The position numbers were made by a program, and so were the translations under genes. This document shows positions 220-28,345 of a stretch of DNA of 32,586 nucleotides, one piece after another. How positions within the stretch are numbered: position 1 is the first letter of the stretch; every line of letters starts with the position of its first letter. Location: IMG/VR virus record IMGVR_UViG_2690316104_000008, positions 1 to 32,586 of that record; one strand, given 5' to 3'. The notes under the pieces are model-generated. The model did no database searches and was not told the DNA's origin. It saw only the letters and a program-made list of their open reading frames with translations. The DNA is from a virus. Lineage: Duplodnaviria > Heunggongvirae > Uroviricota > Caudoviricetes.

Positions 220-300
220 CGCGAGCACCTCTTCCGGTTTTGTTGATAGTGCCATTTTAGTTAATTTATCTTTATAAAACAAACAGATAAACAAAAGACA

Positions 301-1464
301 TCACTCATAATCTTCTGTTTCGTACTCCACATCAGAAAGCCTGACCTCAAGCTCCAAGGACGTCGTGAAGCCGCTATTATTCAGAAAATGTGTCACCTTA
401 GTGATTGTCCAGTCCTGCTCGTCTATGACGCGCTTAAAGCCTGACACTCTGACCGGTGTTTCCGTGTAAATATCTGCACGACCGGTAGCCAGGATGATGG
501 AGAACTCCGCAACGCCCCGTTGCAGTTTGTCCCACTTCGCCTGAGCAGCACGCATGGCCTGTGCTTTCGTGGCATATACCGTGGTCAGGGCAAAAACGTT
601 GTCAGCCTCACCGGCCATGTATTCACCTTCGCGCGCTTCCGGTACTTTTGGCGCTTTCTTCTGCCTGACCGGTTTCGCTTTCGGGTGCTCCAGTGCGCGC
701 AGGTGTTTCTCTTTCTTTTTACGTTTCAGTTTTACCTTCTGCTTTTGCGGCTTCGGGTCTTTGGTGTGTAACCACTTTGCCGTTACGCCGGTGTAGGCTC
801 CACGGTCAGCAATCGCAAAATGATGACGGTCGCCGTCGCTGCGGGTGATGGTAATCTGCGGGATTTTTTTACCGCTGGCCGTCACCCCCTGCCCCGCTTT
901 GAGAAACAACAGTTTTCCCATTTTTACCGACACCTCACCGCCGTTGCGTTCAGCAAGGCGGGTCAGGAATTTCGCATCGGACTCCTGCGACTGGTCGATG
1001 TGCGGGATTTTAATTCCGGCCAGTGACGGAGCAACACTGGCTTCCAGCTTGTTACGGGAGGCTATCGCCTCAACAATCGCACCGAGCGTGGTGTCATGCC
1101 ATGAGCCTTCCCGGCGGGAATTGAGCGTCCCGCGAAAATCTGCACTCCGGGCGCGGATGGTGACCACATCCGGCGCGCCCCGGTGTTCAACCTCATCAAC
1201 GGTGAATTTCCCTTTGCATACCAGGGCAAAACCTTTCCAGCCGATATACACCGTCAGGACAGCGCCACGAACCGGCAGCCCGACCTGCCCGTCGGCATCG
1301 TTCAGTTCAATATCAAGCTGGTCAGCCTCAAAGCCCCGGTTATCCGTCAGGGTCATGCTCATCAGACGGTCGCTGATATTGCCGGTAATATCCCTGCTGT
1401 CGAGCATCAGCATGTAATCCGGCGTCAGCGTACTGCCTGCATCAAATGTCAGCGCATCCAGCAT
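301..1464 (-). CDS. D: Tail protein D (late tail gene)
   Basis: 387 aa, same length as P2 gpD; position between ogr and U; basic KPQKQKVKLKRKKKEK linker. Confidence 0.85.
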   Translation of the reverse strand: MLDALTFDAGSTLTPDYMLMLDSRDITGNISDRLMSMTLTDNRGFEADQLDIELNDADGQVGLPVRGAVLTVYIGWKGFALVCKGKFTVDEVEHRGAPDVVTIRARSADFRGTLNSRREGSWHDTTLGAIVEAIASRNKLEASVAPSLAGIKIPHIDQSQESDAKFLTRLAERNGGEVSVKMGKLLFLKAGQGVTASGKKIPQITITRSDGDRHHFAIADRGAYTGVTAKWLHTKDPKPQKQKVKLKRKKKEKHLRALEHPKAKPVRQKKAPKVPEAREGEYMAGEADNVFALTTVYATKAQAMRAAQAKWDKLQRGVAEFSIILATGRADIYTETPVRVSGFKRVIDEQDWTITKVTHFLNNSGFTTSLELEVRLSDVEYETEDYE

Positions 1465-1943
1465 TATCCCGCCCCCGTCATACCCGTGAATTTAGTCGCC
1501 ATACTGCCAGCCTTACCGATGAGCGATTCCGCCTGTTTACCGATATCGCCATAAAGCGCGGCCAGTGATTCATCCACGCGGGTGAGCGACAGCGTAAAAT
1601 CAATTTTCCGGGGTGTGCCGTCTGCAAAGAAAATACTCCCTGTTTCACTCACCCTGCTGATGACATACATGCCGTAAATCATGCCGGAGCCATCCAGCAA
1701 CGGCCACGCCCGGCCTTCCTCTGCCATCAGTCTGAGCGTGGTCATCGTCAGCTTGCCGCCGGTCAGTTCGGGATAAAGCACACCGGCAAGCGTGATGTTT
1801 TCCTCGCCAACACCGAGAAACTGAAAGGCATCCCGTTTACCGATACGGGAATTTGACGGCCAGCGATAATCTGATTCACGCTGCATGGTCTGGTGTGGCA
1901 GCGTCTGGCGCATAAAAACAAACATACCTAACGCGAGCATCAT
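1464..1943 (-). CDS. U: Tail protein U
   Basis: 159 aa as P2 gpU; ATGA start/stop overlap with D; synteny. Confidence 0.85.
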   Translation of the reverse strand: MMLALGMFVFMRQTLPHQTMQRESDYRWPSNSRIGKRDAFQFLGVGEENITLAGVLYPELTGGKLTMTTLRLMAEEGRAWPLLDGSGMIYGMYVISRVSETGSIFFADGTPRKIDFTLSLTRVDESLAALYGDIGKQAESLIGKAGSMATKFTGMTGAG

Positions 1944-1957
1944 TTTTCGTCACCTCC

Positions 1958-4405
1958 TTAACCGTCATGCATCATGCTGGCACGGGCGCGCGCACGTTTA
2001 TCCCGCTCGTATTTTTCGAGCGCATCCTGTAACTGGCGGTCAAGCTGTGTTCCCGGCGCAGTACCGCCCGTCAGGTTGATGTGATATTCGTTTTTACTCT
2101 GGTCCACATAAGAGCGACCAGCCGGTGCCGTGACCGGCTGATAAGCCTGATAGCCTGCATAAGAGCTGGTCGCCGGAATATAACCACCGGTGCCATACGT
2201 GGCGGCATGAGTCCTTGCGGCGGTCTGATCAAGTGTGTCTGACTCTTTGTTGATAACACCGAGTTTTTCCAGTACCCAGTCAATACCGCTGCGCAGTTTG
2301 TTGAACGCATTAAGCGGCAGCATCAACGCGTCAGCCAGTGCCTTCCCGAACATGACACCCGTGTCACGGCAACGGTTCAGGGTGTCCTGGGTGGCTTTGA
2401 CGGGGGCAATCAGGTTTTTAAACCACTGCCACGCGGCCTGTAACTTTTCACCCAGCCAGTCAAACAGCGGCTTAAGTGGCGTGAACAGTTCCCCCACCGG
2501 CGCAAATGCCGCTTTCAGCCCTTCCACCACACCGCCAAAGAATGCGCTGACAGGCTCCCAGTATTTACGGATAAGCAACGCCCCGGCGACAATTGCAGCC
2601 ACCACGGCCACAACCGGCCAGCTAATCGCCCCGATGGCCGTCATAACAGCACTGCCAACCGTCGTGAAGATTGCCCCCATTGCGCCTGCTGCCGCGATGA
2701 TGGCATTGATGCCAGTGATAACCGGCCAGGCTACGAGGCCAATGGCACCGATGACAGCAGTCAGCGCCAGTGCACCACCGACAATGAGGCCGATGGTTGA
2801 CGCCAGTGATTTGTTTTTCTGGATCCAGCCGTCGAGTTTTAACACATACTTTGTGGCCGTCTGCGTGAGCTTACGCAGTGTGCCTTCCTGCTGGTCAAAC
2901 AGGTCAGTCCCCACCGCCTCATAAGCGGACTGAAACTCCTTAAAGTCGCCTCCGAGGTTATCCTGCATGATTTTAACCAGCTCTTCCGTTTTACCGTCCG
3001 AGGCTTTCAGCGTGGCGGTCAGCTTATCCAGTTTTCCGCTTGCTGCCGCTGCCAGTAAAACGTTCGCTGATTTCAGGGCTTCCTCACCAAAAATGGTTTT
3101 AAGGTATTCCCCTTTCTGAGACGTTCCCAGCTTGTGTTTATCAAAGCTGGCCTGAATCTCTTTCAGAATGGTGAACAACGGACGCATATTTCCCTTTTTG
3201 TCCGAGGTTTTAACGCCAAGCTCTTTGAGTGCATCCCATGCTTTTCCAGTCGGTGCCTGTAATCGGGTGACAACGGCGCTACTACCCGTACCCGCCATTG
3301 ACCCCCTGATGTTATTGTCATGCAGCACACCTGTCATGGCCGCTGCCTGCTCAAGACTTACACCTGCCGTCCTCGCAACAGGCCCGAGGTAAGTCAGTGC
3401 ATCACTGAGTCCCTGAAAATCAGCCGCCGACTTATTCATCGTTGCCGACAACACGTCGCCCACATGGCTGACATCATCATTTGACAGTTGAAAGGATGCC
3501 TTAGTCCCCAGCAACAGTTGAGCGTTTTCTTCCATCGACCGCTGATTCGCCAGTGCCATATTCAGCGTGACCGGCGTTGCCGCCTGAATAGCCGCAGCAT
3601 CTCCACCCGCTTTCGCAATGATAATCTGCGCACCGGCCGCATCATCCGCTGAGGCGGCGGTGTTGTCGCCGAGCTGGCGCGCCTGCTTGCGGAGTGCAGC
3701 CATTTCGGCAGAGTCTTTTGCCACACCGAGCACAGCCTGCAATTCCGAGTTTTTCTGCGCAAACTCATAACCGGGCATCAGCAGCTTAACTCCGGCCATC
3801 GTTCCCGCCGCCGCAATCCCCACACCGGCAGCGCCTACTGAGGCCATATTTCCGGCCAGTTCCTTTCCGGCCTGATAACGCTGTTTTACTGCGTTAAGTT
3901 TTGCCTGTTGCGCACTGACACGCGCCAGCGCATCACGCTGACGGTTAAGCTGGGCGGTGGTTTCACTGATACGGTTTTTCAGTCCCTGCTCATCATGTGC
4001 AAGATTGCGGGTATTAATTCCCACAGCGGCCAGTTCCCGCTGCTGGCGTTTAACTGAATCCGTCAGGCGGTTATATTTCGCCTGTAAGTCCTCCGCCGCT
4101 CGCTTTGCTGATTCCAGCACTTTCGCCTGAGCACGGGTCGGACGTTCGGTGTTTTTAAACTGTGTGGCAAGGGCTTCGGCTTCCTGCCGTGCCTTTTCAA
4201 GTGCATGACCAGTCACGGCAAGCTGTGCACTGGTCTTGCGGAATCCCTCAATACGGGATGCCTGACCGTTCAGCTCGCGCAGTGATTTTTGTGTTTCCCG
4301 GATATCCCCCGACAGCGACTTACTCGCTGTGCGGATGGATTTAAACGGGCGGGATGCCTGGTCAACAGCCCTGAGCAATACCTGTAATTTTACATTGTTA
4401 CTCAT
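1958..4405 (-). CDS. T: Tail tape measure protein T
   Basis: 815 aa from MSNNVKLQ; coiled-coil N-terminal half, Gly/Ala-rich hydrophobic centre; start overlaps E' stop; ORF-track start 4432 is an upstream extension. Confidence 0.9.
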   Translation of the reverse strand: MSNNVKLQVLLRAVDQASRPFKSIRTASKSLSGDIRETQKSLRELNGQASRIEGFRKTSAQLAVTGHALEKARQEAEALATQFKNTERPTRAQAKVLESAKRAAEDLQAKYNRLTDSVKRQQRELAAVGINTRNLAHDEQGLKNRISETTAQLNRQRDALARVSAQQAKLNAVKQRYQAGKELAGNMASVGAAGVGIAAAGTMAGVKLLMPGYEFAQKNSELQAVLGVAKDSAEMAALRKQARQLGDNTAASADDAAGAQIIIAKAGGDAAAIQAATPVTLNMALANQRSMEENAQLLLGTKASFQLSNDDVSHVGDVLSATMNKSAADFQGLSDALTYLGPVARTAGVSLEQAAAMTGVLHDNNIRGSMAGTGSSAVVTRLQAPTGKAWDALKELGVKTSDKKGNMRPLFTILKEIQASFDKHKLGTSQKGEYLKTIFGEEALKSANVLLAAAASGKLDKLTATLKASDGKTEELVKIMQDNLGGDFKEFQSAYEAVGTDLFDQQEGTLRKLTQTATKYVLKLDGWIQKNKSLASTIGLIVGGALALTAVIGAIGLVAWPVITGINAIIAAAGAMGAIFTTVGSAVMTAIGAISWPVVAVVAAIVAGALLIRKYWEPVSAFFGGVVEGLKAAFAPVGELFTPLKPLFDWLGEKLQAAWQWFKNLIAPVKATQDTLNRCRDTGVMFGKALADALMLPLNAFNKLRSGIDWVLEKLGVINKESDTLDQTAARTHAATYGTGGYIPATSSYAGYQAYQPVTAPAGRSYVDQSKNEYHINLTGGTAPGTQLDRQLQDALEKYERDKRARARASMMHDG

Positions 4406-5412: not shown

Positions 5413-6603
5413 TTAATTGCTGTTAACCGAGGTGACCAGATTTGCCAGGTATTTATCGGTAATACGCTGGCGCAGGGTCAGGTTTTCAAGAGGAGGCACC
5501 GGGGTATAGTCGTAGTCGATATACAGTTTTCCGGCCTTGAGGGTTTCCGCATCGTTGGATTCTTCGCTGAACCAGCAGGTCGCATCCACGATATAGCCGT
5601 TTGTTTTCAGCTCACGGAATTTGGCATTGATGCCGTCAACGATGTCGCGAATCAGCGTTGCGGTGATGGGCTTGTCCACCGCCCACATGTGCGCCTCAGC
5701 CATCGTGTCGGCCAGCACCTGCGCGGTGCGGGTGTAGTTTTCAAAGAGGAACAGCGGGTCATCAGAGCAGGTACGGTTACCCCAGAAGCGGAAACCGTCG
5801 CGGCGAATCAGCGTAGTGACGCCTGACTCGTTAAGCAAGTCAGCATCGGTGCCGGACTCCTGCAAATCCCAGAAGACGGATGCGCTGATGCCGGTAACAC
5901 CGTTCACCCCGACATTGGACAGCGTTTTATGCCAGCCCTGCTCCTGGTCGATTTTAGCGCGCAGACCCAGCGCACGGGCGGTGGCATACGCGGTGGCGGT
6001 GGTACTGGTGACCGTATCCCATGCGAGGAAATCCGGCCAGATGACCATCAGCTCACGCTGGCTGAAATTCTGGCGGTAAGCTTTCACCTCGGAAATGGTT
6101 TTACAGCCCCATGCGCTGATATATCCGAAAGCGCGCAGCTTCTGACAGACTGATGCCAGTGCAACAGCCACCTCTTTGGTATCCAGCCCCGGCACACCGA
6201 GAATACGCGGTTTAACACCGGTTATCGACTCCGCCGCCAGCAGGGCTTTTAGTCCGGTGTACTGACCGTTTTCGTCGGTGGTGCCGATGATATTGGAAAC
6301 GGTCTGCGCGAGTTTCGTTTCCTCGTCGTCGCCGGTGCCGTCTTCCACACGCACGACAACGGTGACCGGTTTTGACTGGTCAGCGATGGCCTGCAACGAT
6401 GCAGCCAGCGTGCCTTTTTTACCGGCCTTTGCAATTGCGCTCTGCACATTGGTAATCAGCACCGGTTTATTGATGGGAAAGGTTTCCGCATCCGCATCGC
6501 TGGCCGTGCAGACCATGCCGACAATGGCAGTGGATACGGTGGAAATGACGCGGGTGCCGTCGTTAATCTCCAGCACCTGCACGCCGTGATGATAGTCACT
6601 CAT
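5413..6603 (-). CDS. FI: Contractile tail sheath protein FI
   Basis: 396 aa as P2 FI; synteny. Confidence 0.9.
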   Translation of the reverse strand: MSDYHHGVQVLEINDGTRVISTVSTAIVGMVCTASDADAETFPINKPVLITNVQSAIAKAGKKGTLAASLQAIADQSKPVTVVVRVEDGTGDDEETKLAQTVSNIIGTTDENGQYTGLKALLAAESITGVKPRILGVPGLDTKEVAVALASVCQKLRAFGYISAWGCKTISEVKAYRQNFSQRELMVIWPDFLAWDTVTSTTATAYATARALGLRAKIDQEQGWHKTLSNVGVNGVTGISASVFWDLQESGTDADLLNESGVTTLIRRDGFRFWGNRTCSDDPLFLFENYTRTAQVLADTMAEAHMWAVDKPITATLIRDIVDGINAKFRELKTNGYIVDATCWFSEESNDAETLKAGKLYIDYDYTPVPPLENLTLRQRITDKYLANLVTSVNSN

Positions 6604-17920: not shown

Positions 17921-18775
17921 TCAGCAGTTCGTCATCAGGGCGTCACCGCCACCGCCGGTGGCCTTGCTGCGGCGCTGCTGGGTCAGACTTTCGGTGTGGT
18001 CGAGACTGTTTTTCAGGCGGGTGAATGCCTGGCTGGTTTCATCCGCCCTGTCAGTCACCTCCTGCTTAAGTGCGGAAAAGGCGGTTTCCACCTCAGCGAG
18101 GCGCTGCTCAGTGGCGCTCAGTTTTTCCTGCACATGTTCAGCAACAGCGGTCACCGCTTCATGCACGTCATTCAGACGGGCGTCATCGCTGGCCTGTTTG
18201 CGGCCAAAAATGGATTTCACCTTTTCGGTCAGGGCGGTGAACACGGTTTCAGGCAGGTCTTCAAATTCCAGCTCAACAGGCGTTGCCACTGAAATCAGGT
18301 TTTCAGGGCTTAATTTGAAGCGGTTCAGAGGGTTGTGTTTTGCCGTGCGGCAGAATTCCAGGTATTCCGTGCCGAGGCTTGCCGGGTCATCGGTGACGGC
18401 CAGACCCACCAGATAACATTTGCCTGTATTGGCAAAGTTCGGCTGAATTTCCATTGAGGTATAGACCTTCTGCGCGGCCTTGTTCATCGCGATAAGGTCA
18501 TCGGTCGGGGTGATTTTCGCAAACAGCGCCCATTTGCCTTTCAGCGCCGAATCATCGTCAATCTTTTCGGCCTTCAGTTCGGCCACATCGCCATAACGTT
18601 TAAAAATACCGTCAGGCAGGATGCCGCGCAGATGTTCCAGGTTAATGCGGCAACCATAGACACGCGGGTCAAAGGTTTCGGCCATTTCCTGAATATCCTG
18701 CGCACTGATGACACGCCCGTCACAGGTGTCACCCTCAACGCCGATACGAAAGAATTTTGAGACTTTTTTTGCCAT
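17921..18775 (-). CDS. O: Capsid scaffolding protein O, 284 aa
   Basis: From MAKKVSKFFRIG, matching P2 gpO length; synteny; ORF-track start 18841 is an extension. Confidence 0.85.
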   Translation of the reverse strand: MAKKVSKFFRIGVEGDTCDGRVISAQDIQEMAETFDPRVYGCRINLEHLRGILPDGIFKRYGDVAELKAEKIDDDSALKGKWALFAKITPTDDLIAMNKAAQKVYTSMEIQPNFANTGKCYLVGLAVTDDPASLGTEYLEFCRTAKHNPLNRFKLSPENLISVATPVELEFEDLPETVFTALTEKVKSIFGRKQASDDARLNDVHEAVTAVAEHVQEKLSATEQRLAEVETAFSALKQEVTDRADETSQAFTRLKNSLDHTESLTQQRRSKATGGGGDALMTNC

Positions 18776-18948
18776 TGTCAGGAGTCCTGAATAGTGATTA
18801 GAGGAGTCACATGTCGGCATCAGTTTCCCGACGATGCGCATCCTCCGCCATCAGTCCCGGATGGCTTATCACTGACACAACAGCACCTTAGCGAATCGCG
18901 GGGCGCGACTCAGTAGCCTTGCCGTGTATTCATCACGGCGAGGTATTC
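18776..18948. promoter_or_regulatory. Divergent late promoter region for the O-to-L and P-Q operons (expected Ogr-dependent)
   Basis: Intergenic between divergent O and P starts; inferred from P2 organisation, motifs not confirmed. Confidence 0.4.
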
Positions 18949-20721
18949 ATGACCATCACCACAGACACCACTCTTTTACACGACCCGCGTCGTCAGGCGG
19001 CGCTGCTGTACTGGCAGGGGTTTTCCGTGCCGCAGATTGCCGCCATGTTGCAGATGAAACGCCCGACGGTGCAGAGCTGGAAACAGCGCGACGGCTGGGA
19101 CAGTGTTGCCCCCATCAGCCGTGTCGAAATGAGCCTGGAAGCGCGGCTGACCCAGCTCATCATCAAACCGCAGAAAACCGGCGGTGACTTCAAGGAAATT
19201 GACCTGCTCGGACGCCAGATTGAACGACTGGCACGGGTAAACCGCTACAGTCAGACCGGCAACGAGGCAGACCTTAATCCGAACGTCGCTAACCGCAACA
19301 AAGGCGGGCGTCGCAAACCGAAAAAGAATTTTTTCAGTGACGAGGCCATCGAAAAGCTGGAGCAGATTTTCTTTGAGCAGTCTTTCGAATATCAGTTGCA
19401 CTGGTATCGCGCCGGGCTTGAGCACCGCATCCGCGATATCCTGAAATCCCGCCAGATTGGCGCGACGTTTTATTTTTCCCGCGAGGCGCTGCTGCGCGCC
19501 CTGAAAACCGGCCATAACCAGATTTTTCTGTCGGCCAGTAAAACGCAGGCGTATGTGTTCCGCGAATACATCATTGCCTTTGCCCGGCTGGTTGACGTTG
19601 ACCTGACCGGTGACCCGATTGTCCTGGGCAATAACGGTGCAAAACTGATTTTTCTCGGCACCAACTCCAACACCGCACAGAGCCATAACGGCGACCTGTA
19701 CGTCGACGAGATTTTCTGGATCCCGAATTTTCAGGTACTGCGTAAGGTAGCATCAGGTATGGCCTCACAGAGTCACCTGCGCTCGACCTATTTCTCCACC
19801 CCGTCCACGCTGGCGCACGACGCCTACCCGTTCTGGTCAGGTGAACTGTTCAACCGGGGACGCGCCAGCGCCGCCGAACGCGTGGAAATCGACGTCAGTC
19901 ATAACGCCCTTGCCGGTGGTCTTCTCTGTGCGGACGGCCAGTGGCGGCAGATTGTCACCATTGAGGATGCCCTGAAAGGTGGCTGCACACTGTTCGACAT
20001 TGAGCAGCTCAAACGTGAAAACAGCGCCGACGATTTTAAAAACCTGTTCATGTGTGAATTTGTTGACGACAAGGCGTCGGTGTTCCCGTTCGAGGAGCTG
20101 CAACGCTGCATGGTCGACACGCTGGAAGAATGGGAAGACTATGCGCCGTTTGCCGCCAATCCGTTCGGCTCACGTCCGGTATGGATTGGTTACGACCCGT
20201 CACACCGTGGCGACAGTGCCGGATGCGTGGTGCTGGCACCGCCGGTGGTGGCCGGTGGCAAATTCAGAATACTTGAGCGTCACCAGTGGAAAGGCATGGA
20301 CTTTGCCACCCAGGCTGAATCCATCCGCAAACTCACCGAAAAATACAACGTCGAATACATCGGAATTGATGCCACCGGCCTCGGTGTCGGCGTGTTCCAG
20401 CTCGTTCGCTCGTTCTATCCCGCCGCGCGCGATATCCGCTACACGCCGGAAATGAAAACCGCAATGGTGCTCAAGGCAAAAGACGTTATTCGCCGTGGCT
20501 GTCTGGAATATGACGTCAGCGCCACCGACATCACCAGCTCGTTTATGGCTATCCGCAAGACCATGACCAGCAGCGGACGCAGCGCCACCTATGAGGCCAG
20601 CCGCAGCGAGGAAGCCAGCCACGCCGACCTCGCCTGGGCGACCATGCACGCCCTGTTAAATGAGCCACTCACCGCCGGTATCAGCACCCCGCTGACATCC
20701 ACCATTCTGGAGTTTTACTGA
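18949..20721 (+). CDS. P: Terminase large (ATPase) subunit P, 590 aa
   Basis: From MTITTDTT with GAGGT ribosome-binding site; length as P2 gpP; synteny. Confidence 0.9.
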   Translation: MTITTDTTLLHDPRRQAALLYWQGFSVPQIAAMLQMKRPTVQSWKQRDGWDSVAPISRVEMSLEARLTQLIIKPQKTGGDFKEIDLLGRQIERLARVNRYSQTGNEADLNPNVANRNKGGRRKPKKNFFSDEAIEKLEQIFFEQSFEYQLHWYRAGLEHRIRDILKSRQIGATFYFSREALLRALKTGHNQIFLSASKTQAYVFREYIIAFARLVDVDLTGDPIVLGNNGAKLIFLGTNSNTAQSHNGDLYVDEIFWIPNFQVLRKVASGMASQSHLRSTYFSTPSTLAHDAYPFWSGELFNRGRASAAERVEIDVSHNALAGGLLCADGQWRQIVTIEDALKGGCTLFDIEQLKRENSADDFKNLFMCEFVDDKASVFPFEELQRCMVDTLEEWEDYAPFAANPFGSRPVWIGYDPSHRGDSAGCVVLAPPVVAGGKFRILERHQWKGMDFATQAESIRKLTEKYNVEYIGIDATGLGVGVFQLVRSFYPAARDIRYTPEMKTAMVLKAKDVIRRGCLEYDVSATDITSSFMAIRKTMTSSGRSATYEASRSEEASHADLAWATMHALLNEPLTAGISTPLTSTILEFY

Positions 20722-21755
20722 TGAGCAAGAAAAAAGGGAAAACACCGCAACCTGCGGCAAAAAAAATGACCGCCAGCGCCCCGAAAATGGAGGCATTCAC
20801 CTTTGGTGAACCGGTGCCGGTACTCGACCGCCGTGACATTCTGGATTACGTCGAGTGCATCAGTAACGGCAGATGGTATGAGCCACCGGTCAGCTTTACC
20901 GGTCTGGCAAAAAGTCTGCGTGCTGCCGTACATCACAGCTCACCGATTTACGTCAAACGTAATATTCTGGCTTCAACGTTTATTCCGCACCCGTGGCTTT
21001 CCCAGCAGGATTTCAGCCGCTTTGTGCTGGATTTTCTGGTATTTGGTAATGCGTTTCTGGAAAAGCGTTACAGCACCACCGGTAAGGTCATCAGACTGGA
21101 AACCTCACCGGCAAAATATACCCGCCGTGGCGTGGAGGAGGATGTTTACTGGTGGGTGCCGTCCTTCAACGAGCCGACAGCCTTCGCGCCCGGCTCCGTG
21201 TTTCACCTGCTGGAGCCGGATATCAATCAGGAGCTGTACGGCCTGCCGGAATATCTCAGCGCCCTTAACTCTGCCTGGCTGAATGAGTCGGCCACGCTGT
21301 TCCGCCGCAAGTATTACGAAAACGGCGCACATGCCGGATACATCATGTACGTCACTGATGCCGTGCAGGATCGCAACGATATCGAAATGCTCCGCGAAAA
21401 CATGGTGAAGTCGAAAGGCCGCAATAACTTTAAAAACCTGTTTCTCTATGCCCCACAGGGAAAAGCCGACGGCATTAAAATTATCCCGCTCAGTGAAGTG
21501 GCCACGAAGGACGATTTTTTTAATATCAAAAAAGCCAGCGCCGCTGACCTGCTGGACGCGCACCGCATCCCCTTTCAGTTGATGGGCGGCAAGCCGGAAA
21601 ACGTCGGGTCGCTGGGCGATATTGAGAAAGTGGCAAAGGTCTTTGTCCGCAATGAACTTATCCCGTTACAGGACAGGATTCGGGAAATAAACGGCTGGCT
21701 CGGTCAGGAGGTCATCCGCTTTAAAAACTACTCACTGGACACTGACAACGGCTGA
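20721..21755 (+). CDS. Q: Portal protein Q
   Basis: 344 aa as P2 gpQ; TGATG overlap with P. Confidence 0.9.
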   Translation: MSKKKGKTPQPAAKKMTASAPKMEAFTFGEPVPVLDRRDILDYVECISNGRWYEPPVSFTGLAKSLRAAVHHSSPIYVKRNILASTFIPHPWLSQQDFSRFVLDFLVFGNAFLEKRYSTTGKVIRLETSPAKYTRRGVEEDVYWWVPSFNEPTAFAPGSVFHLLEPDINQELYGLPEYLSALNSAWLNESATLFRRKYYENGAHAGYIMYVTDAVQDRNDIEMLRENMVKSKGRNNFKNLFLYAPQGKADGIKIIPLSEVATKDDFFNIKKASAADLLDAHRIPFQLMGGKPENVGSLGDIEKVAKVFVRNELIPLQDRIREINGWLGQEVIRFKNYSLDTDNG

Positions 21756-21760
21756 ACATC

Positions 21761-21782
21761 GCCGCCTGCGGGCGGCTTTTTT
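21761..21782 (+). terminator. Rho-independent terminator after Q
   Basis: gccgcc-tgcg-ggcggc hairpin followed by tttttt. Confidence 0.6.
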
Positions 21783-21924
21783 ACACCCCGTCATCACGCC
21801 CTCACACGCTCATCACCGCACAAAAAATCCCGCAGACACACCAACGCCCCAGCAGGCCAAGTAAACGCCTTCACGACGCGCTCAGACGCTGAAAAAATAA
21901 AATCAGCACCACCGCCAGCGCGCA

Positions 21925-21943
21925 GTGCTTTCCCCGCCTCGCC
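21925..21943. other. cos cohesive-end site (19 nt)
   Basis: gtgctttccccgcctcgcc is the reverse complement of the P2 cohesive end GGCGAGGCGGGGAAAGCAC as I recall it; adjacent to Q as expected. Confidence 0.75.
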
Positions 21944-22171
21944 CGCCCGCTTCATGGGGCGGTTTTAATGCAGTTGCATCAGGAAATCAGAGCTCTACCA
22001 ACACTGGCACGCCACCACATGCTTTGAAATAAAAGCGAATGCAAACTCATGCACCAGTTAGATGCATTAGCACAAAGCTGAAAATCATAAAATAAGCGGC
22101 ATAATCCCCCTCATGCTACCAAGAAACTCTCAAGATGTTGTGCTAAACATCGATGATCTGTACCTTGTTTT

Positions 22172-23638
22172 ATGGTAAACATATCTATAAGTAATCACAC
22201 AGATGGAACTAAAATAACTATGGCAAACGATATCATCGAAGCTTTTCCTGCAAAACGTTTCTTTGTAGAAATGTTAACCAGGGATATCGAACTCCAAGAT
22301 GCTATTCTTGACTTATTAGACAACTGTCTTGATGGCGCTCTTCGTTCCATTTCATCATCGAATGAAGAAATAAACGAAGAAAATAAATACCACGGTTTTT
22401 ACTCAAAAATAAATTTTAATGAAGATGGTTTTACAATTGAAGATAATTGTGGCGGAATTTCGGGAAGCTTAGCAACAAGCTATGCTTTCCGAATGGGAAG
22501 ACCAAATGAAAGAGACATAGATAATATCCCAACCATTGGTGTTTATGGGATAGGTATGAAGCGAGCTATTTTTAAGTTGGGCACTTCATCGCAAGTATTA
22601 AGTAAAACAAAAGACGAGGAATTTAAAGTTACAATTTCTCCAGAATGGTTATCCAATGATAAAAACTGGAAACTAGATCTCGAACGTGGTAATGTCGATT
22701 TAAAAACAACGGGCGTAAAAATTATAGTTAACGATCTCAGAGACGATGTAAAAAACCATTTCAAAGTTGATCGTGATTTTCAACAAAAATTAATCAATTC
22801 TGTTTCAAACCATTATAGCCTAATTCTTAATAAAGGTTTCAAGGTCTATATTAATGATATAGAAGTCAAGCCAAATCTGACATCATTAATTATCGATACC
22901 GAAGCTCTTGTGTCAGCGAAAAAAGGTGGTATCACGCCTTATTTTTACAGAGGTGAAACTAATGGAGTTTCAATAAAGATCGCAGTTGGATTCTATAGAG
23001 ATTTTGTGACAGAAGATGAGGAAAATTCATTCCTTACTGGACGTAACACTTCCGAGAAAGCCGGATGGACTATTATCTGCAATGATCGTGTTGTTGTTCA
23101 TGCGGACAAGACACGTCTTACCGGATGGGGTGAAGCAGGAGTTCCACAATATCATACACAATTTGTTGGAATTGCAGGCGTAGCTATTTTTACATCTAAT
23201 GAAGCTGAAAAATTACCTATTACTACTACCAAGAGAGGCATTGATGGTAATTCTGATATCTATTTGGCTACTAAAGATTTCATGCGTGAAGGCTTGAAAA
23301 TATTTACAGATTTTACTAACAGATGGAAAAGTAACTCTCCAGAACGCCAGCAAATGTTTAGTTCCACATCTAAAACAATTCCTCTTACAAACGACAAACT
23401 AGATAGCATAGTACCTGAAGATAAATGGTCTCGGGTGCATAGATCCATTGGTGGGAATAGTTTCAAACCAACATTGCCAATACCTAAAGAAACAGACCCT
23501 TTAAAGCAAATAAAATTTAGTAGAAGATTGAGTGAGATAAAAACTGTTGCCACTTTCATTTTCGATGATGATTCTGTTCCTCCGACAGAAATTGGTAATT
23601 ATTGCTTTGAAGATTTTTTAGAGAGGGCAAAAAAATGA
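22172..23638 (+). CDS. MORC-like GHKL-superfamily ATPase (Bergerat fold) with about 300-aa C-terminal region of unknown function; alternative start at 22220
   Basis: N box DLLDNCLDGAL, G1 box EDNCGGISG, G2 box IGVYGIGMKRAIFKLG (MORC-type G-YG-G-K); AT-rich. Confidence 0.6.
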   Translation: MVNISISNHTDGTKITMANDIIEAFPAKRFFVEMLTRDIELQDAILDLLDNCLDGALRSISSSNEEINEENKYHGFYSKINFNEDGFTIEDNCGGISGSLATSYAFRMGRPNERDIDNIPTIGVYGIGMKRAIFKLGTSSQVLSKTKDEEFKVTISPEWLSNDKNWKLDLERGNVDLKTTGVKIIVNDLRDDVKNHFKVDRDFQQKLINSVSNHYSLILNKGFKVYINDIEVKPNLTSLIIDTEALVSAKKGGITPYFYRGETNGVSIKIAVGFYRDFVTEDEENSFLTGRNTSEKAGWTIICNDRVVVHADKTRLTGWGEAGVPQYHTQFVGIAGVAIFTSNEAEKLPITTTKRGIDGNSDIYLATKDFMREGLKIFTDFTNRWKSNSPERQQMFSSTSKTIPLTNDKLDSIVPEDKWSRVHRSIGGNSFKPTLPIPKETDPLKQIKFSRRLSEIKTVATFIFDDDSVPPTEIGNYCFEDFLERAKK

Positions 23639-24627
23639 GTACTGGGGGAAGTATTCCTTATCATCTTCGACAACACAAAGCTGTCGAAAGAAATCTATTC
23701 ATTGAGTTGCTCAGAAAACTCAACAACTATGTAAACATATCCGATTATGTTTATATCGGGTTTGGTGGCCCTTTTCTAGAAGACTTCAAACAACTGCATA
23801 ATGCTTTAAAAATCAATAACATGATCTCTCTAGAGGTAGATGCTAACGTTCATAAACGACAAAAATTTAACAAACCTATATCATGTATTGATTTAGGAGA
23901 AGAACCTTTAAGTAGCAGTGAATTTATTACTCAAAGCGACTTCGCTGCACCTTCTCTAATTTGGCTTGACTATGCCATACCAAGCCAAATATATGAGCAA
24001 ATGAATGACATTGCTCAATTGGTAAGTAAGTTAAAGCCAAAAGATATATTTAAAATAACTTTAAATGCAACTCCTGAAACTTTAGGAAGAGATTTTCAAG
24101 AAAGAGACCCTAGGCGTTTTCGATTAAAAAAAATACAATCTTTACTTACTCAAGATTATTGCCCAGTGAATCTAACTGTTGATGATGTCACTTTTAAAAG
24201 GTACCCACACCTTTTAATAAAAGCAGCTCAACGTGCCATAAGTATTGGATTAACAGGTAGACTAGATATAATGATCCATCCTTTATGTAATTTTATTTAC
24301 AAAGATGGTCAGCAAATGCTTACCTTTACTGCCATTGTTCTCGAAAACAGTGATATGCAATTAGATAGCTTCCTTCAAAATTCTCGAATTAATTTTTGGC
24401 CCTTTTATTCTGGAGACTGGGGCACCGTCAAAAACATTAGTGTTCCCACGATGTCTTTACGTGAGAGAATCTTTATTGAGGAACGACTTCCTACAAAAGA
24501 CCATGAAGAAATTACCAACGACCTCGGCTTTTACATTGGAGATGATGAAGCCGAGGCTAATAGTAACCTTAAAAACTTTATTGAGTATTACAAAGTAATT
24601 CCGTGGTATTCGAAAGTTCTTCTTTAG
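23635..24627 (+). CDS. Hypothetical protein, 330 aa, translationally coupled partner of the GHKL ATPase
   Basis: ATGA overlap with upstream gene; AT-rich; no motif I can recognise. Confidence 0.5.
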   Translation: MSTGGSIPYHLRQHKAVERNLFIELLRKLNNYVNISDYVYIGFGGPFLEDFKQLHNALKINNMISLEVDANVHKRQKFNKPISCIDLGEEPLSSSEFITQSDFAAPSLIWLDYAIPSQIYEQMNDIAQLVSKLKPKDIFKITLNATPETLGRDFQERDPRRFRLKKIQSLLTQDYCPVNLTVDDVTFKRYPHLLIKAAQRAISIGLTGRLDIMIHPLCNFIYKDGQQMLTFTAIVLENSDMQLDSFLQNSRINFWPFYSGDWGTVKNISVPTMSLRERIFIEERLPTKDHEEITNDLGFYIGDDEAEANSNLKNFIEYYKVIPWYSKVLL

Positions 24628-25729
24628 AAAACTGACATAATTTATATAACGGTAATAGCATAGCTTCAGCTACTAATGGGCTAACGCTATTACCGATTTG
24701 CCTGAAACTATGCCACTTAGTAGGGTGAAACCTAAACCAATCAGGAAAACCTTGTAATCGAGCAGCCTCACGTGGAGTAATAACTCTAGCCTGCGTTGGA
24801 TGGATCGGCCTAACTGCTTGATAACTGCCCTTATCGCTGCCAGTTCCAGCCCTTAGCGTCGGACAGAAACCATTTGGATTTAACCTCTGAGATCGTGAAA
24901 TTTTATCAGTTTCGCCAAAAGAGAGTTTTTTATATCTATTAATAACCTCATCTGTATGTATTGTTCCCAAGAAACCGGAGACCAACCCTTTTTTTAATTT
25001 TTCTAAAGATTCCGGATCACCAACATTATTCGGAACATTACTCCAAAGTCTATCAAAAAAATATCCTTGCCTATCCATCTTAACTTCACGCCAGCCTTGT
25101 TCCTCTTGCTGCCATTCTTTTCTTATAACACGAGGAATACCGTATAAAGCATCTTTAACTAAGGTTTGCTCAATATCTTGCACAGGAAAGAAATCAGATT
25201 CTTTTAAACAATTAGCTAATTCCTTTTTGAATCCGATAAAAAAAATCCTAGTTCTAGTTGTAGGAGCTCCATAATTAGACGCATTCACTTTTATTGGGCT
25301 CAATATTACATATCGGTCTTTTACTAATGAGAATGCTTTTTCTCTAACTGCATCATATTTTTCATTCATTATCCCAGGAACATTCTCTGCCAAGAAACAA
25401 ACAGGTGATAACTCGCTCACCAACCTAAAAAAATGAATATACAATTCATTTCTGACGTCATTAGCCATCCCTTTACCAATTGTACTAAATCCCTGACAAG
25501 GTGGTCCACCGATGACACAATCAATATTACTAACATTACAAGCTGTTAGAATATCATGAGCAGAAAGTTTGCTAACATCTTTATGTAAATGTGTTGAATT
25601 TGGGAAATTAAGAGCATGGGAAAATATTGCATGCTTATCCAACTCAACGGCACCAACCAAGTTAAAGCCTGCCCGTGATGCTCCCAAGCTTAAACCACCT
25701 ACCCCTGAGTATAAATCAACCACATTCAT
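24578..25729 (-). CDS. DNA (cytosine-5)-methyltransferase
   Basis: Motif I DLYSGVGG, motif IV GGPPCQGFS, motif VI ENV, C-terminal GNSV. Confidence 0.9.
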   Translation of the reverse strand: MNVVDLYSGVGGLSLGASRAGFNLVGAVELDKHAIFSHALNFPNSTHLHKDVSKLSAHDILTACNVSNIDCVIGGPPCQGFSTIGKGMANDVRNELYIHFFRLVSELSPVCFLAENVPGIMNEKYDAVREKAFSLVKDRYVILSPIKVNASNYGAPTTRTRIFFIGFKKELANCLKESDFFPVQDIEQTLVKDALYGIPRVIRKEWQQEEQGWREVKMDRQGYFFDRLWSNVPNNVGDPESLEKLKKGLVSGFLGTIHTDEVINRYKKLSFGETDKISRSQRLNPNGFCPTLRAGTGSDKGSYQAVRPIHPTQARVITPREAARLQGFPDWFRFHPTKWHSFRQIGNSVSPLVAEAMLLPLYKLCQFSKEELSNTTELLCNTQ

Positions 25730-25779
25730 GTTCAGTTAACCATATATGTATATTTAGACAACAATATTTAATTCTACCA

Positions 25780-28080
25780 TTACTTGAGCTCTTTGCTGAA
25801 GTACTCATTACTAAAACCCTGCCACTCATCGACATTACTTGCCACATACTTATATTTTTTATCATCGAATATCACCATCGCACCACGCGCCAGCGCCTCA
25901 AGCTCCCATCGCTGTGGCCTGATACCGTTCTGAGCAAGGTCAACGCGGATACGGGTAATTTGCATTCGTTCCGACCGGGTCAGTCTGGCCGATGGCGCTA
26001 TTTCATGCGGTTTTAACGGGCTTCCGTTTCTTTGCTGACGGTTTGGTCTTCTCAGACCGTGTTTTAATGCACCTCTGAGCGCCCTCACGACCTCCTGGTC
26101 ATTCCATTTGATAACACCGCCATCTACCAGATTAAGCACTGCTACGGCGTGTTCAGAAGGCGTGGGAGCCGGTGACGAAGTATCACCACCGGTGAGCTTT
26201 CCACAGTTATTGACAGGACTCCGAGGCGCGGCGATGCCGCTTTTTAAAGTCAAAGGCTCCACGACCGGAACTTTCGGAACAATGCGCCAGTCCGTCGTTC
26301 TGGTGATATGAATATGACGCGCGCCGAGATGCGGCGCGTAAATGCCGACCACTCTCTCGACTTCTTCCTCGTACTCGTTAACTTCATCCGACGGGCTACG
26401 GGCAACCCTGACAGTCTGACAATCGCGCGGAACATTTGCCCCACCCTGCGCGCTGATATACAACGCAAAATCACCACTGTCTGCGGCAGCGCGAGCAGCC
26501 TCGACGCGTTCGTCAAACTCATCAGCAATACTGACGCCGCGAGGCAATTTGCGTAGTTCACGGTAAGCCCCCATTGTCGGCAGGCCAACCGTTTTAAATT
26601 GTGGAATGCGCCACGTTGACGCCCATGCGGTAACAGCCGCGGCAGTGTCTTTCAGCGGCCTGCCGGTATCGTTATCGAGCTGACCATCCAGTGCATAGCC
26701 GTCGATGTTTTTTGAAATGTATTTCGCGATATATCCCGCAGCACCGCCCCGGTTAAGGTGTTTTGCCTGAAAACGGTTTCGCGCAGCTCCTCTTTCGTCA
26801 CCATCCTCTTTGAGCGCATAGCGACGCATGATTTCGATAATCTGATTACGCTGGCGTGGATTACAAAAAAGCATCATATGCCAGTGCGGCGTTCCGTCGT
26901 GGTGTGGCTCGACGACACGCAAACCGTAGACCTGTAAATCATTATCCTTGAATGCCGTGCGCATCAGGCTCCAGATGCGGCAGAGATAACGCTGCGCATC
27001 CTTTGGATTAAATGCCTCATCGTTCCAGCCGTGATTTAGCTGGACGGTTTTACTTTCGCCTTTTCCGACCTGACGTGTCGGGTGATACTTTGACGGCGCG
27101 GTCAGCGTGATAAACATCCCCACATCACCCTCTGCGGCGGCGTAACGCTCAATACCGGCAATGGTGTTCATCAGCTCCATCCGGCGAATTTCAGGATTAG
27201 AAATACTTCCCATCACCTTACTGATAAGGTCGATGCGCTCGCCGGTTTCCCTGTTTTCAAGGTCACACGATTTAAGAAATTCCAGATTTGCCTGGCGGCG
27301 CGCACGCACATCACGAATGGCATGTTTACTGGCATAAGGAGAACGGTCTTTATTGACCTCCCCGACAGCAATCAGTAACGCTTCATGCCAGCGCATACGT
27401 TGACCTTTAAGCTGATGAGTCCACCACTCATCGTTAAACAGGCGGGCAATGGCAGAATATGCCTGCCTCGTGGTCATCTGTCCTTTACGGTATTTTTTCC
27501 AGTAAAGCGGGGAAATATTGAAAGCACGTGCAGCGCCAGCAACATGACCATACAGGTGAGCCTGAGCCTCATCCGTAAACAGTGATTCTTTTTCGCCATG
27601 CGCATCCACCCAGGCATCGCTGAGTTCCTCATACATCATGAAAAGCTGCGATGAGATACGGGCGGCAAACTTTTTCAGCTCCTTGTCATTCATCCCCGGC
27701 AGACGCGCATAATGGTCACGCTCTGCCAGAAACAGCAACGACGCGTCGGTGTTCATTTCATGGCGCTGATTCACACGTTCAATGCGCGGCCATAAACGAC
27801 GCTGAAAAGTGGATGTGAGGAAATAAAACCCGTGTACCGGGCTTTTATTGCGCCGGATGTAGTCATAGCGTGAAGTAAACAGCGAGCGCAAAAAGTAAGG
27901 CAGGCGGTTAATCGTGGATAAAACACCTTGCACCTGACGCATCTCGTCACGTGTAAGGGGTCTTTCGCGCCCGACAGCCTCGCGTGGCGCGTTCCATGCA
28001 TAAGCACCGGTAAACGCCTTACCGGTGCCTGCGGCAAATGCTGATGGAGGGACAAAACGCCCGGAGGCTTTAACGGCCAT
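25780..28080 (-). CDS. A: Replication initiation protein A (rolling-circle nickase)
   Basis: From MAVKASGRFVPPSAF, matching remembered P2 gpA N-terminus; HUH-type region EPHHDGTPHWHMMLF; ORF-track start 28122 is an extension. Confidence 0.9.
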   Translation of the reverse strand: MAVKASGRFVPPSAFAAGTGKAFTGAYAWNAPREAVGRERPLTRDEMRQVQGVLSTINRLPYFLRSLFTSRYDYIRRNKSPVHGFYFLTSTFQRRLWPRIERVNQRHEMNTDASLLFLAERDHYARLPGMNDKELKKFAARISSQLFMMYEELSDAWVDAHGEKESLFTDEAQAHLYGHVAGAARAFNISPLYWKKYRKGQMTTRQAYSAIARLFNDEWWTHQLKGQRMRWHEALLIAVGEVNKDRSPYASKHAIRDVRARRQANLEFLKSCDLENRETGERIDLISKVMGSISNPEIRRMELMNTIAGIERYAAAEGDVGMFITLTAPSKYHPTRQVGKGESKTVQLNHGWNDEAFNPKDAQRYLCRIWSLMRTAFKDNDLQVYGLRVVEPHHDGTPHWHMMLFCNPRQRNQIIEIMRRYALKEDGDERGAARNRFQAKHLNRGGAAGYIAKYISKNIDGYALDGQLDNDTGRPLKDTAAAVTAWASTWRIPQFKTVGLPTMGAYRELRKLPRGVSIADEFDERVEAARAAADSGDFALYISAQGGANVPRDCQTVRVARSPSDEVNEYEEEVERVVGIYAPHLGARHIHITRTTDWRIVPKVPVVEPLTLKSGIAAPRSPVNNCGKLTGGDTSSPAPTPSEHAVAVLNLVDGGVIKWNDQEVVRALRGALKHGLRRPNRQQRNGSPLKPHEIAPSARLTRSERMQITRIRVDLAQNGIRPQRWELEALARGAMVIFDDKKYKYVASNVDEWQGFSNEYFSKELK

Positions 28081-28345
28081 ATGAGCCAAAAGCCTCTGAA
28101 CAACGCTTGCTGAGTTGCTCAACCTGCGCGTTTAAATCAGCAAAAGACTTTGCGCTTCCGGTCAGAATATCGTGATGCATCATGCCGGAAACGAGCTGGC
28201 TTAATTTCGGGTAATAACCAACCACCGACAGCCATTCCTGACCGGCGTTTTTACCGCTTTCCGCTCTCTTTTTCTCGTGGAGAATAAACTGAAAGCTGTC
28301 ACTGGTAACGACATAACGTTCGCCAATTTCAATACGAATACTCAT
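28070..28345 (-). CDS. Hypothetical early protein (P2 orf83 position)
   Basis: 91-aa ORF between the zinc-finger ORF and A; synteny only. Confidence 0.55.
   Translation of the reverse strand: MSIRIEIGERYVVTSDSFQFILHEKKRAESGKNAGQEWLSVVGYYPKLSQLVSGMMHHDILTGSAKSFADLNAQVEQLSKRCSEAFGSYGR

Follow-up and report, generated by a model that had tools for sequence, protein, structure and literature searches.

A predicted methyltransferase-fold partner of a MORC-like ATPase in a cytosine methylase-linked cassette of a P2-like Escherichia coli prophage

Introduction

What is the role of a protein whose gene starts within the stop codon of an ATPase gene, in the cargo of a prophage? This question is raised by the 330-amino-acid (aa) protein encoded at 23635..24627 (plus strand) of IMG/VR virus record IMGVR_UViG_2690316104_000008, a P2-like prophage of Escherichia coli that was analysed over its whole length of 32,586 nucleotides (nt; hereafter the window). 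A sequence-only reading had described the protein as the translationally coupled second member of a two-gene defence module, without a recognisable methyltransferase motif and possibly a nuclease or another toxic effector. In this study, both the open reading frame (ORF) and its ATGA overlap with the ATPase stop were confirmed in the sequence. The protein itself is confidently predicted to adopt a class I Rossmann fold of S-adenosylmethionine (SAM)-dependent methyltransferases. Our best reading is that the ATPase-partner pair and a C5 cytosine methyltransferase (Dcm), at other loci also with Vsr, form a mobile restriction-modification-like cassette, carried here as hotspot cargo of a P2-like prophage.

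Results

The predicted fold

The 330-aa protein belongs, over its full length, to Pfam family PF20553 (Methyltransf_35), which has no characterised member. Residues 3-328 align with profile positions 2-307 of 309 at 283.4 bits (E=3e-84; the gathering score is 27 bits), and PF20553 was the sole Pfam family matched by 42 of 42 diverse relatives. The protein also matches PHROG 19983, a family of unknown function (E=3e-177). Pfam describes PF20553 as 'Putative O-methyltransferase', and the identical NCBI protein WP_021517197.1 is labelled 'O-methyltransferase'. The family is large: of 1.84 billion cluster representatives, 1,994 match at E<=1e-3. All of the best 150 of these 1,994 are stand-alone proteins without fusions, nearly all of about 300-380 aa.

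An AlphaFold2 model built with 34 homologues (predicted local distance difference test, pLDDT, 91.5; predicted template modelling score, pTM, 0.88) has the seven-stranded alpha/beta architecture of the class I methyltransferases. With this model, Foldseek retrieved 241 PDB chains at E<=1e-3, and the top 50 listed are all SAM-dependent methyltransferases or proteins of methyltransferase fold. The top structural neighbours are the tRNA/rRNA base methyltransferases Trm1, RlmI, RlmO, RlmJ and TYW2, so that the nearest solved folds act on N- and C-positions of RNA bases. Trm1, RlmI and RlmJ are the closest solved structures, but identity to the neighbours is only 7-12% and motif IV is different. 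Two extras are predicted on the common fold: residues 147-206 would form a basic helical insert, and residues 240-326 a helical domain at the C-terminus. The insert lies between beta5 and beta6, has an isoelectric point of 9.75 and shows the lowest mean conservation in the protein (0.33); the target-recognition element of many nucleic-acid methyltransferases sits at this position.

Sequence comparison placed the protein near no characterised relative. PADLOC-DB v2.0.0 contains no family for the 330-aa protein or the ATPase at E<=1, and NCBIfam has none for the 330-aa protein (MzaB reached only 14.5 bits, with a cut-off of 850). Searches of the PDB sequences with the protein and with its profile gave no match, and no sequence-profile relationship to RlmJ or RsmJ was detectable. 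Nuclease folds or motifs of the PD-(D/E)xK and HNH types were absent from the top Foldseek matches and from the Pfam scan of the 42 members. The remote-homology and structure searches that had been proposed led to an uncharacterised Pfam family and to a methyltransferase fold instead of the nuclease that had been anticipated. The earlier reading of an uncharacterised partner holds, with no characterised homologue in PADLOC, PDB sequences or the literature searched. As a side observation, the 330-aa protein evolves faster than its neighbours: between distant phyla, identity to the window proteins is 26-30% for this partner, 39-44% for the ATPase and 50-55% for Dcm.

The putative active site

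Conservation was assessed in an alignment of 79 sequences from more than 10 phyla, including Proteobacteria, Cyanobacteria, Bacillota, Bacteroidota, Acidobacteriota, Verrucomicrobiota, Chloroflexota and Latescibacterota. An N-terminal motif, Y9-H10-L11-R12-x-x-K15-x-x-x-R19, is invariant or nearly so. It is followed by a glycine-rich motif I loop after beta1, (G/S)42-x-G44-(G/A/S)45, in which G44 is present in 78 of the 79 sequences. Position 67 at the end of beta2, where class I methyltransferases contact the SAM ribose, is acidic throughout (68 Glu, 11 Asp), and W110-x-D112-(Y/F)113 at the end of beta4 is 100% conserved and contains no prolines. Other invariant or near-invariant positions are Y40, E49-D50, R75-Q76, T142, Y222, D224, M228, P271 and E277. 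Working SAM-dependent enzymes keep motif I, the motif II acid and an Asp-aromatic pair at the motif IV position. The conserved positions likely represent an active site under purifying selection, and the many additional charged invariants suggest an elaborate substrate site. The earlier statement that no methyltransferase motif can be identified is contradicted by the end-to-end match to PF20553, the class I fold model, the Gly loop, the acidic position 67 and the W110-x-D112-(Y/F)113 motif.

Two specific catalytic signatures were tried and rejected. The K-D-K-E tetrad of 2'-O-ribose methyltransferases is suggested in close homologues by K15, D112 and K140, but fails at the scale of 79 sequences: K15 and D112 are invariant, position 140 is Lys in 58 and Arg in 21 sequences, and there is no conserved Glu on beta6 or beta7. 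A catechol-type D/D/N metal triad was discarded as well, with N144 in only 60 of 79 sequences and a hydrophobic residue before it. Since the nearest folds belong to methyltransferases of N- and C-positions of RNA bases and the K-D-K-E tetrad is not conserved, the 'O-' in the database label 'O-methyltransferase' is without specific support.

The upstream ATPase

The ATPase consists of a GHKL and S5 module, and its best structural matches are MORC3, SMCHD1 and MORC2; the same architecture is common to MutL. Translation probably starts at 22220 (472 aa) and not at 22172 (488 aa), because homologues are 460-475 aa long and the RefSeq annotation uses that ATG. Among 78 sequences the ATP-binding motifs are invariant, with N35, D38-G39, D75-N-C-G-G79, G107-x-Y-G-x-G112-M-K-R and the S5 lysine K338. 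An unusually conserved block, comprising C287-N-D-R290, D296, T301-G-W-G304, H312 and Q314, lies in the S5-like region. The C-terminal 130 residues hold few conserved polar residues and show no sign of a nuclease.

Gene content of related loci

Gene neighbourhoods were compared in three sets, namely homologues in public assemblies, 80 genome loci (one genome per species) and 53 viral contigs; individual loci are given as L numbers. An ATPase homologue lies directly upstream of the 330-aa homologue in 79 of the 80 genome loci and in 51 of the 53 viral loci. The in-frame start falls exactly 4 nt into the ATPase stop in 64/79 loci from more than 10 phyla. Because the same 4-nt overlap recurs in these related loci, the ATGA overlap is not a product of chance, and the tight translational coupling that had been proposed is borne out. 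In addition, the identities of ATPase and partner to the window proteins co-vary (r=0.89).

The two-gene module of the sequence-only reading was incomplete: 67 of 79 genome loci also encode a C5 cytosine methyltransferase, as immediate neighbour in at least 52, and so do 50 of 53 viral loci. In the window this enzyme matches Pfam DNA_methylase (8.6e-58), TIGR00675 dcm and PADLOC MTase_II (8e-95); the only PADLOC models matched are the generic MTase_II, DruM and DrmMII. Where its gene lies, and in which direction, differs among loci: Latescibacterota and Chloroflexota have it upstream and co-directional, sometimes in one operon with the pair and Vsr, enterobacteria downstream and convergent, Vibrio and Pseudomonas downstream and co-directional, and in 47 of the 50 viral loci that carry one it is convergent. 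Vsr, an endonuclease repairing 5-methylcytosine (5mC) deamination, is encoded in 37 of the 80 genome loci and missing from the window cassette and from 51 of the 53 viral loci. Some loci, e.g. L073, have a four-gene operon Dcm-ATPase-MT35-Vsr (MT35 being the 330-aa partner). The presence of Vsr argues that the linked methylase really writes 5mC. A linked DNA methyltransferase that is predicted, from its homology, to be able to mark self DNA is thus part of the system.

Among the 135 nearest flanking genes no further conserved gene and no shared nuclease was found (HNH in 2 of 135); these genes are mobile-element, scattered defence-type and housekeeping genes. The cassette is self-contained, with a core of ATPase and methyltransferase-fold protein, usually Dcm and often Vsr.

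Several loci deviate from this scheme. In about 10 of them a second, longer GHKL protein (546-610 aa, HATPase_c_3) adjoins Dcm (L004/L005, 10256-12088; also L015, L016, L017, L019, L022, L024, L036, L038), for whose C-terminal half Pfam gives no match. In L033 and L058 the ATPase comes as two separate ORFs (a possible pseudogene or sequencing frameshift), and in L067 the ATPase match is on the opposite strand, overlapping the partner.

Organization of the prophage locus

The features of the window around the cassette are as follows (basis in brackets):

17921-18841, minus strand: scaffold gene O (annotation of identical locus)
18919-20721: terminase P (annotation of identical locus)
20721-21755: portal Q (annotation of identical locus)
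about 22000-25750, no strand: low-GC (guanine + cytosine) cargo island of 3.7 kb and ~35% GC, between cos/portal Q and gene A (composition)
22078..22105, plus strand: weak candidate sigma-70-like promoter (consensus scan, 9/12 matches)
22220..23638, plus strand: MORC-like GHKL + S5 ATPase of 472 aa, obligate partner on the upstream side; longest ORF from 22172
23621..23627, plus strand: Shine-Dalgarno-like GAGAGGG in the end of the ATPase gene, ~7 nt upstream of the ATG (direct sequence reading)
23635..23638, plus strand: ATGA start/stop overlap, translational coupling (sequence)
23635..24627, plus strand: gene of the 330-aa protein of predicted methyltransferase fold (ORF list)
24578..24627, no strand: 50-nt overlap between the methyltransferase-fold and Dcm genes, at their convergent 3' ends (ORF coordinates)
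24578..25729, minus strand: convergent C5 cytosine DNA methyltransferase of 383 aa (Pfam, TIGR00675, PADLOC)
25780-28122, minus strand: replication gene A (annotation of identical locus)

In the ATGA overlap, the ATG of the partner (23635-23637) shares two letters with the TGA of the ATPase (23636-23638). The island contains three ORFs, the GHKL ATPase, the 330-aa ORF and the convergent C5 cytosine methyltransferase, and it differs in composition from the phage DNA around it (~35% GC inside, 55% outside). It occupies exactly the P2 tin/old position, the cos/gpA or portal/gpA hotspot. Matches to other P2-like prophages and phages are confined to the initial ~80-90 nt of the query (window ~21900-21990) and to the far flank. 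A strong terminator-like hairpin lies 3' of the portal gene (window 21761-21776). The sequence GTGCTTTCCCCGCCTCGCC (window 21926-21944) corresponds to the P2 cohesive end, which puts the cargo island at most about 100 nt from cos. A promoter scan of the region gave 15 sites, compared with 12.9±3.4 in shuffled sequences, and is thus not above chance. Convergent 3' overlaps of 40-50 nt are also found in the enterobacterial loci L009-L011, L013 and L018. By analogy with some restriction-modification systems, the 3' overlap and the recurrent convergent layout suggest control by antisense transcription or transcriptional interference.

The cos/gpA (tin/old) region of P2 is documented as an anti-phage defence hotspot (Rousset et al.), and the defence context assumed for the protein therefore stands. 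Table S5 of that study lists the cassette, as well as a variant (WP_029401229/228/227). Neither protein sequence was found in the text of the supplement, including the table of evaluated systems, so that the cassette appears to have been catalogued in the hotspot study but not to be among the systems tested there.

Carriers

The identical island is present in 3 of 5,426 complete E. coli genomes, and in 46 others a variant allele is found at the same P2 portal/gpA hotspot. In E. coli FDAARGOS_448 (L091, NZ_CP023960.1, 4797-8312) ATPase, partner and Dcm of the variant allele are 63, 64 and 81% identical to those of the window; the annotation of this record marks the neighbouring replication gene A as incomplete. 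In some 170 additional complete genomes (O157:H7, O111:H8 and others) the match is restricted to a conserved 195-nt segment of the ATPase gene. The one of these that was inspected, O157:H7 ATCC 43888 (L092, NZ_CP041623.1, 5200-8699), carries a complete, diverged triad in a lambdoid prophage, with identities to the window of 41% (ATPase), 34% (partner) and 64% (Dcm). The Dcm of this triad and the structural-genomics entry PDB 3G7U are 100% identical, which means that a structure already exists for one component of this sister cassette.

The P2 cos/gpA hotspot also harbors the cassette at L009 and L010, and Enterobacter and Kluyvera P2-like prophages are among the carriers. Tn7-like transposons of Vibrio cholerae and Aeromonas, a Burkholderia integrase island with Vsr and a Microvirga plasmid carry it as well. 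The sole carrier among 50,697 deposited phage genomes is the filamentous Pseudomonas phage PfAC20 (L090, PP058144.1), in which ATPase, partner and cytosine methyltransferase (280-3711) lie at the accessory end and adjoin the repressor/excisionase. PfAC20 also encodes a second, shorter cytosine methyltransferase (5438-6082). In a Myxococcota metagenome-assembled genome (L066, 239-11504) the pair lies inside a DISARM-like defence island without a C5 methylase, next to genes for an MmeI-TRD protein, an SNF2 helicase, a 1198-aa helicase and an MZB/DUF1998 protein.

Discussion

With moderate confidence, we favour the view that the 330-aa protein binds SAM as a subunit of a defence or restriction-like module that has a MORC-like ATPase, is linked to Dcm and lacks a nuclease. 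Most likely it acts in complex with the ATPase, with both made in fixed proportion. In such a module, Dcm would mark resident DNA with 5mC, as its homology and the presence of Vsr suggest. The ATPase dimer, judged by its structural similarity to MORC and MutL, might serve as an ATP-gated DNA clamp or switch. The methyltransferase-fold subunit would then engage its substrate via a predicted conserved pocket (Y9-H10-x-R12, K15, R19, E49-D50, R75-Q76, W110-x-D112-Y/F, Y222, D224), and could either read the C5-methylation state of the DNA or transfer a group from SAM onto unmarked DNA. Finally, unmarked (phage) DNA would be disabled without a dedicated nuclease, because none is encoded in the cassette. 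A more far-reaching version of this scheme, to which we give a rather low probability, is an immune or silencing machine that works without a nuclease and recognises 5mC as 'self': the MORC-type clamp would load, the SAM-binding partner would probe cytosines, and unmarked DNA would be trapped and compacted, or disabled by an unusual SAM-dependent transfer.

Several observations weigh against the favoured reading. SAM binding, methyl transfer, complex formation, DNA binding and phage protection are all predictions from sequence. In the N-box of the ATPase an invariant Asp, D31, four residues before N35, replaces the catalytic Glu of MutL, MORC and GyrB. The motif IV position of the partner, D-(Y/F), is non-canonical compared with the (D/N/S)-P-P-(Y/F/W/H) of amino-methyltransferases. 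None of the three proteins contains a restriction endonuclease component or any other nuclease or killing domain, which leaves 'restriction' without a known executor, and none of the PADLOC models matches ATPase or partner. Furthermore, the methylase does not appear to be co-inherited with matching specificity. The identity of Dcm ranges from 28 to 68% at a nearly constant identity of ATPase and partner (47-52%), with an overall r=0.26, and this independence of Dcm from the pair speaks against a cognate restriction-modification pair of the classical, sequence-specific kind. Since Dcm is exchangeable, it is improbable that the 330-aa partner reads a specific sequence in concert with one particular methylase; a generic sensor of C versus 5mC, or an activity that does not depend on the Dcm site, agrees better with the data.

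Moreover, 12 of 79 loci have no C5 methylase in the flank. In the cyanobacterial loci L028, L030, L031, L034, L035 and L037 the pair stands alone, with 7-kb flanks free of any DNA methyltransferase, and such loci are unexpected if the pair is lethal without a methylase. In Nostocales the pair is inserted between NADH dehydrogenase (ndhF/ndhD-type) genes, and at least 6 cyanobacterial loci are complete on both sides. The pair-alone loci retain every family-invariant residue. As complete Nostocales loci carry the pair alone, it is not obligatorily lethal without a methylase in cis, and it may rely on a methylase elsewhere in the genome or need none.

How do other explanations compare? That the pair serves DNA (hyper)modification is possible, if unlikely. 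It would be a second DNA methyltransferase, this one ATP-dependent, or another SAM-dependent transferase that adds a mark, possibly on or next to Dcm-made 5mC, and so protects the element and its host from restriction or regulates genes, instead of attacking foreign DNA. The intact and conserved SAM-binding signature, closest folds that are nucleic-acid base methyltransferases, the linkage to a 5mC writer and Vsr, a cassette without nuclease and an exchangeable Dcm are all consistent with modification. However, it leaves unexplained why the cassette is found at the cargo position in loci otherwise full of defence systems, pairs exist without nearby Dcm, and only 1 of 50,697 deposited phage genomes carries the cassette; anti-restriction methylases are common in virulent phages. 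The tRNA/rRNA methyltransferases among the top structural neighbours would also suit abortive infection, in which the MORC-like ATPase senses phage DNA or protein, the partner methylates host rRNA, tRNA or protein to arrest growth, and Dcm is accessory or separate. The autonomy of the pair in cyanobacteria and its location in a prophage defence hotspot point the same way, but sequence profiles do not connect the protein to RlmJ or RsmJ, and the C5 methylase/Vsr linkage in most loci, sometimes in one operon, together with the MORC-type ATPase, points to DNA. We therefore consider abortive infection improbable.

A role in repair appears very improbable. In this case the MutL-like ATPase and a helper would assist very-short-patch repair of T:G mismatches that arise by deamination of Dcm-made 5mC, an idea that draws on Vsr in 37 of 80 loci, on the GHKL and S5 architecture common to MutL and on the stimulation of Vsr by MutL in E. 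coli. It is at odds with the lack of Vsr in the window cassette and 51 of 53 viral loci and with pairs that have neither Dcm nor Vsr, and it leaves the SAM-binding fold without a role. The nuclease (PD-(D/E)xK or HNH) or other classical toxic effector of a two-gene ATPase-effector module that had been expected is largely refuted and retains only a minimal probability. Translational coupling to an ATPase in a defence hotspot and many invariant acidic, basic and His residues had favoured it; yet neither motif was found when looked for in the model and the families. The confident model is a Rossmann methyltransferase fold, Pfam finds no nuclease family in 42 members, and the module has a third conserved gene.

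The favoured reading places the cassette close to restriction-modification systems with MORC/paraMORC GHKL ATPases, as predicted by Iyer, Abhiman & Aravind (2008; PMC2292703). Like these, it combines an ATPase with intact GHKL and S5 ATP-binding motifs with cytosine methylases and Vsr on mobile loci. The C-terminal extension beyond S5 in the window ATPase resembles paraMORC1, a comparison made by description only, and the about 10 loci with MORC-type and paraMORC-type ATPases in one cassette recall a sketch of these authors. Their systems pair with helicases and with nucleases of HNH or restriction endonuclease fold, whereas here only the methyltransferase-fold partner is conserved. The triads of Bellieny-Rabelo et al. 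(2021; PMC8011034) likewise comprise a C5 methylase, an HATPase_c_3 protein and a tightly linked small partner. However, their HEF_HK ATPase domain and receiver-like Response_reg_2 partner were not detected here, and an identity with them was rejected. Other published identities that were checked and rejected are PD-lambda-5 (Vassallo et al.), WonAB and VcSduA of V. cholerae, the KKP module of Pf phages and the 'Kinase-methylase' system (Rousset et al., Table S6). No published description of the cassette was found in the literature searched, whose coverage is incomplete, so that an earlier description elsewhere is possible.

In logic, the cassette resembles Type III restriction-modification and BREX, in that a methyltransferase-fold subunit is combined with an ATPase and DNA is proposed to be discriminated by methylation; like BREX, it has no recognisable nuclease. 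In Type III systems and BREX the methyltransferase subunit itself writes the protective N6-adenine mark. Unlike them, the cassette has a separate C5 methylase, and its ATPase is of the GHKL/MORC type, not superfamily 2 or AAA+. The PADLOC models for BREX and restriction-modification do not match the ATPase-partner pair. The structural match to eukaryotic MORC and SMCHD1 is accompanied by a genetic tie to 5mC writing; unlike these proteins, the ATPase has no CW, coiled-coil or hinge domains and an Asp in place of the catalytic Glu. A functional parallel with silencing by eukaryotic MORC and SMCHD1 would be speculation by analogy.

Conclusions

The labels 'unknown effector, probably a nuclease' and 'O-methyltransferase' are both misleading and are corrected by this study, for a family of about 2,000 representative clusters in more than 10 bacterial phyla in which no member is characterised. 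About 4% of complete E. coli genomes carry the cassette, O157:H7 among them, and it occupies the prophage defence hotspot with the best documentation. Despite this spread it is recognised by no defence database model and is not seen among the systems tested in the hotspot study. Compared with the class described by Iyer, Abhiman & Aravind (2008; PMC2292703), the new element is the methyltransferase-fold partner, which replaces a nuclease or helicase. Methylation-based discrimination together with a MORC-type ATPase and no nuclease poses a BREX-like puzzle, namely how unmarked DNA would be stopped uncut, and the cassette offers a three-gene bacterial model for the cooperation of MORC ATPases with DNA methylation. 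If the pair is indeed a nuclease-free machine that reads 5mC, it would represent a new effector chemistry for phage defence and a bacterial counterpart, possibly a forerunner, of the eukaryotic partnership between MORC and DNA methylation.

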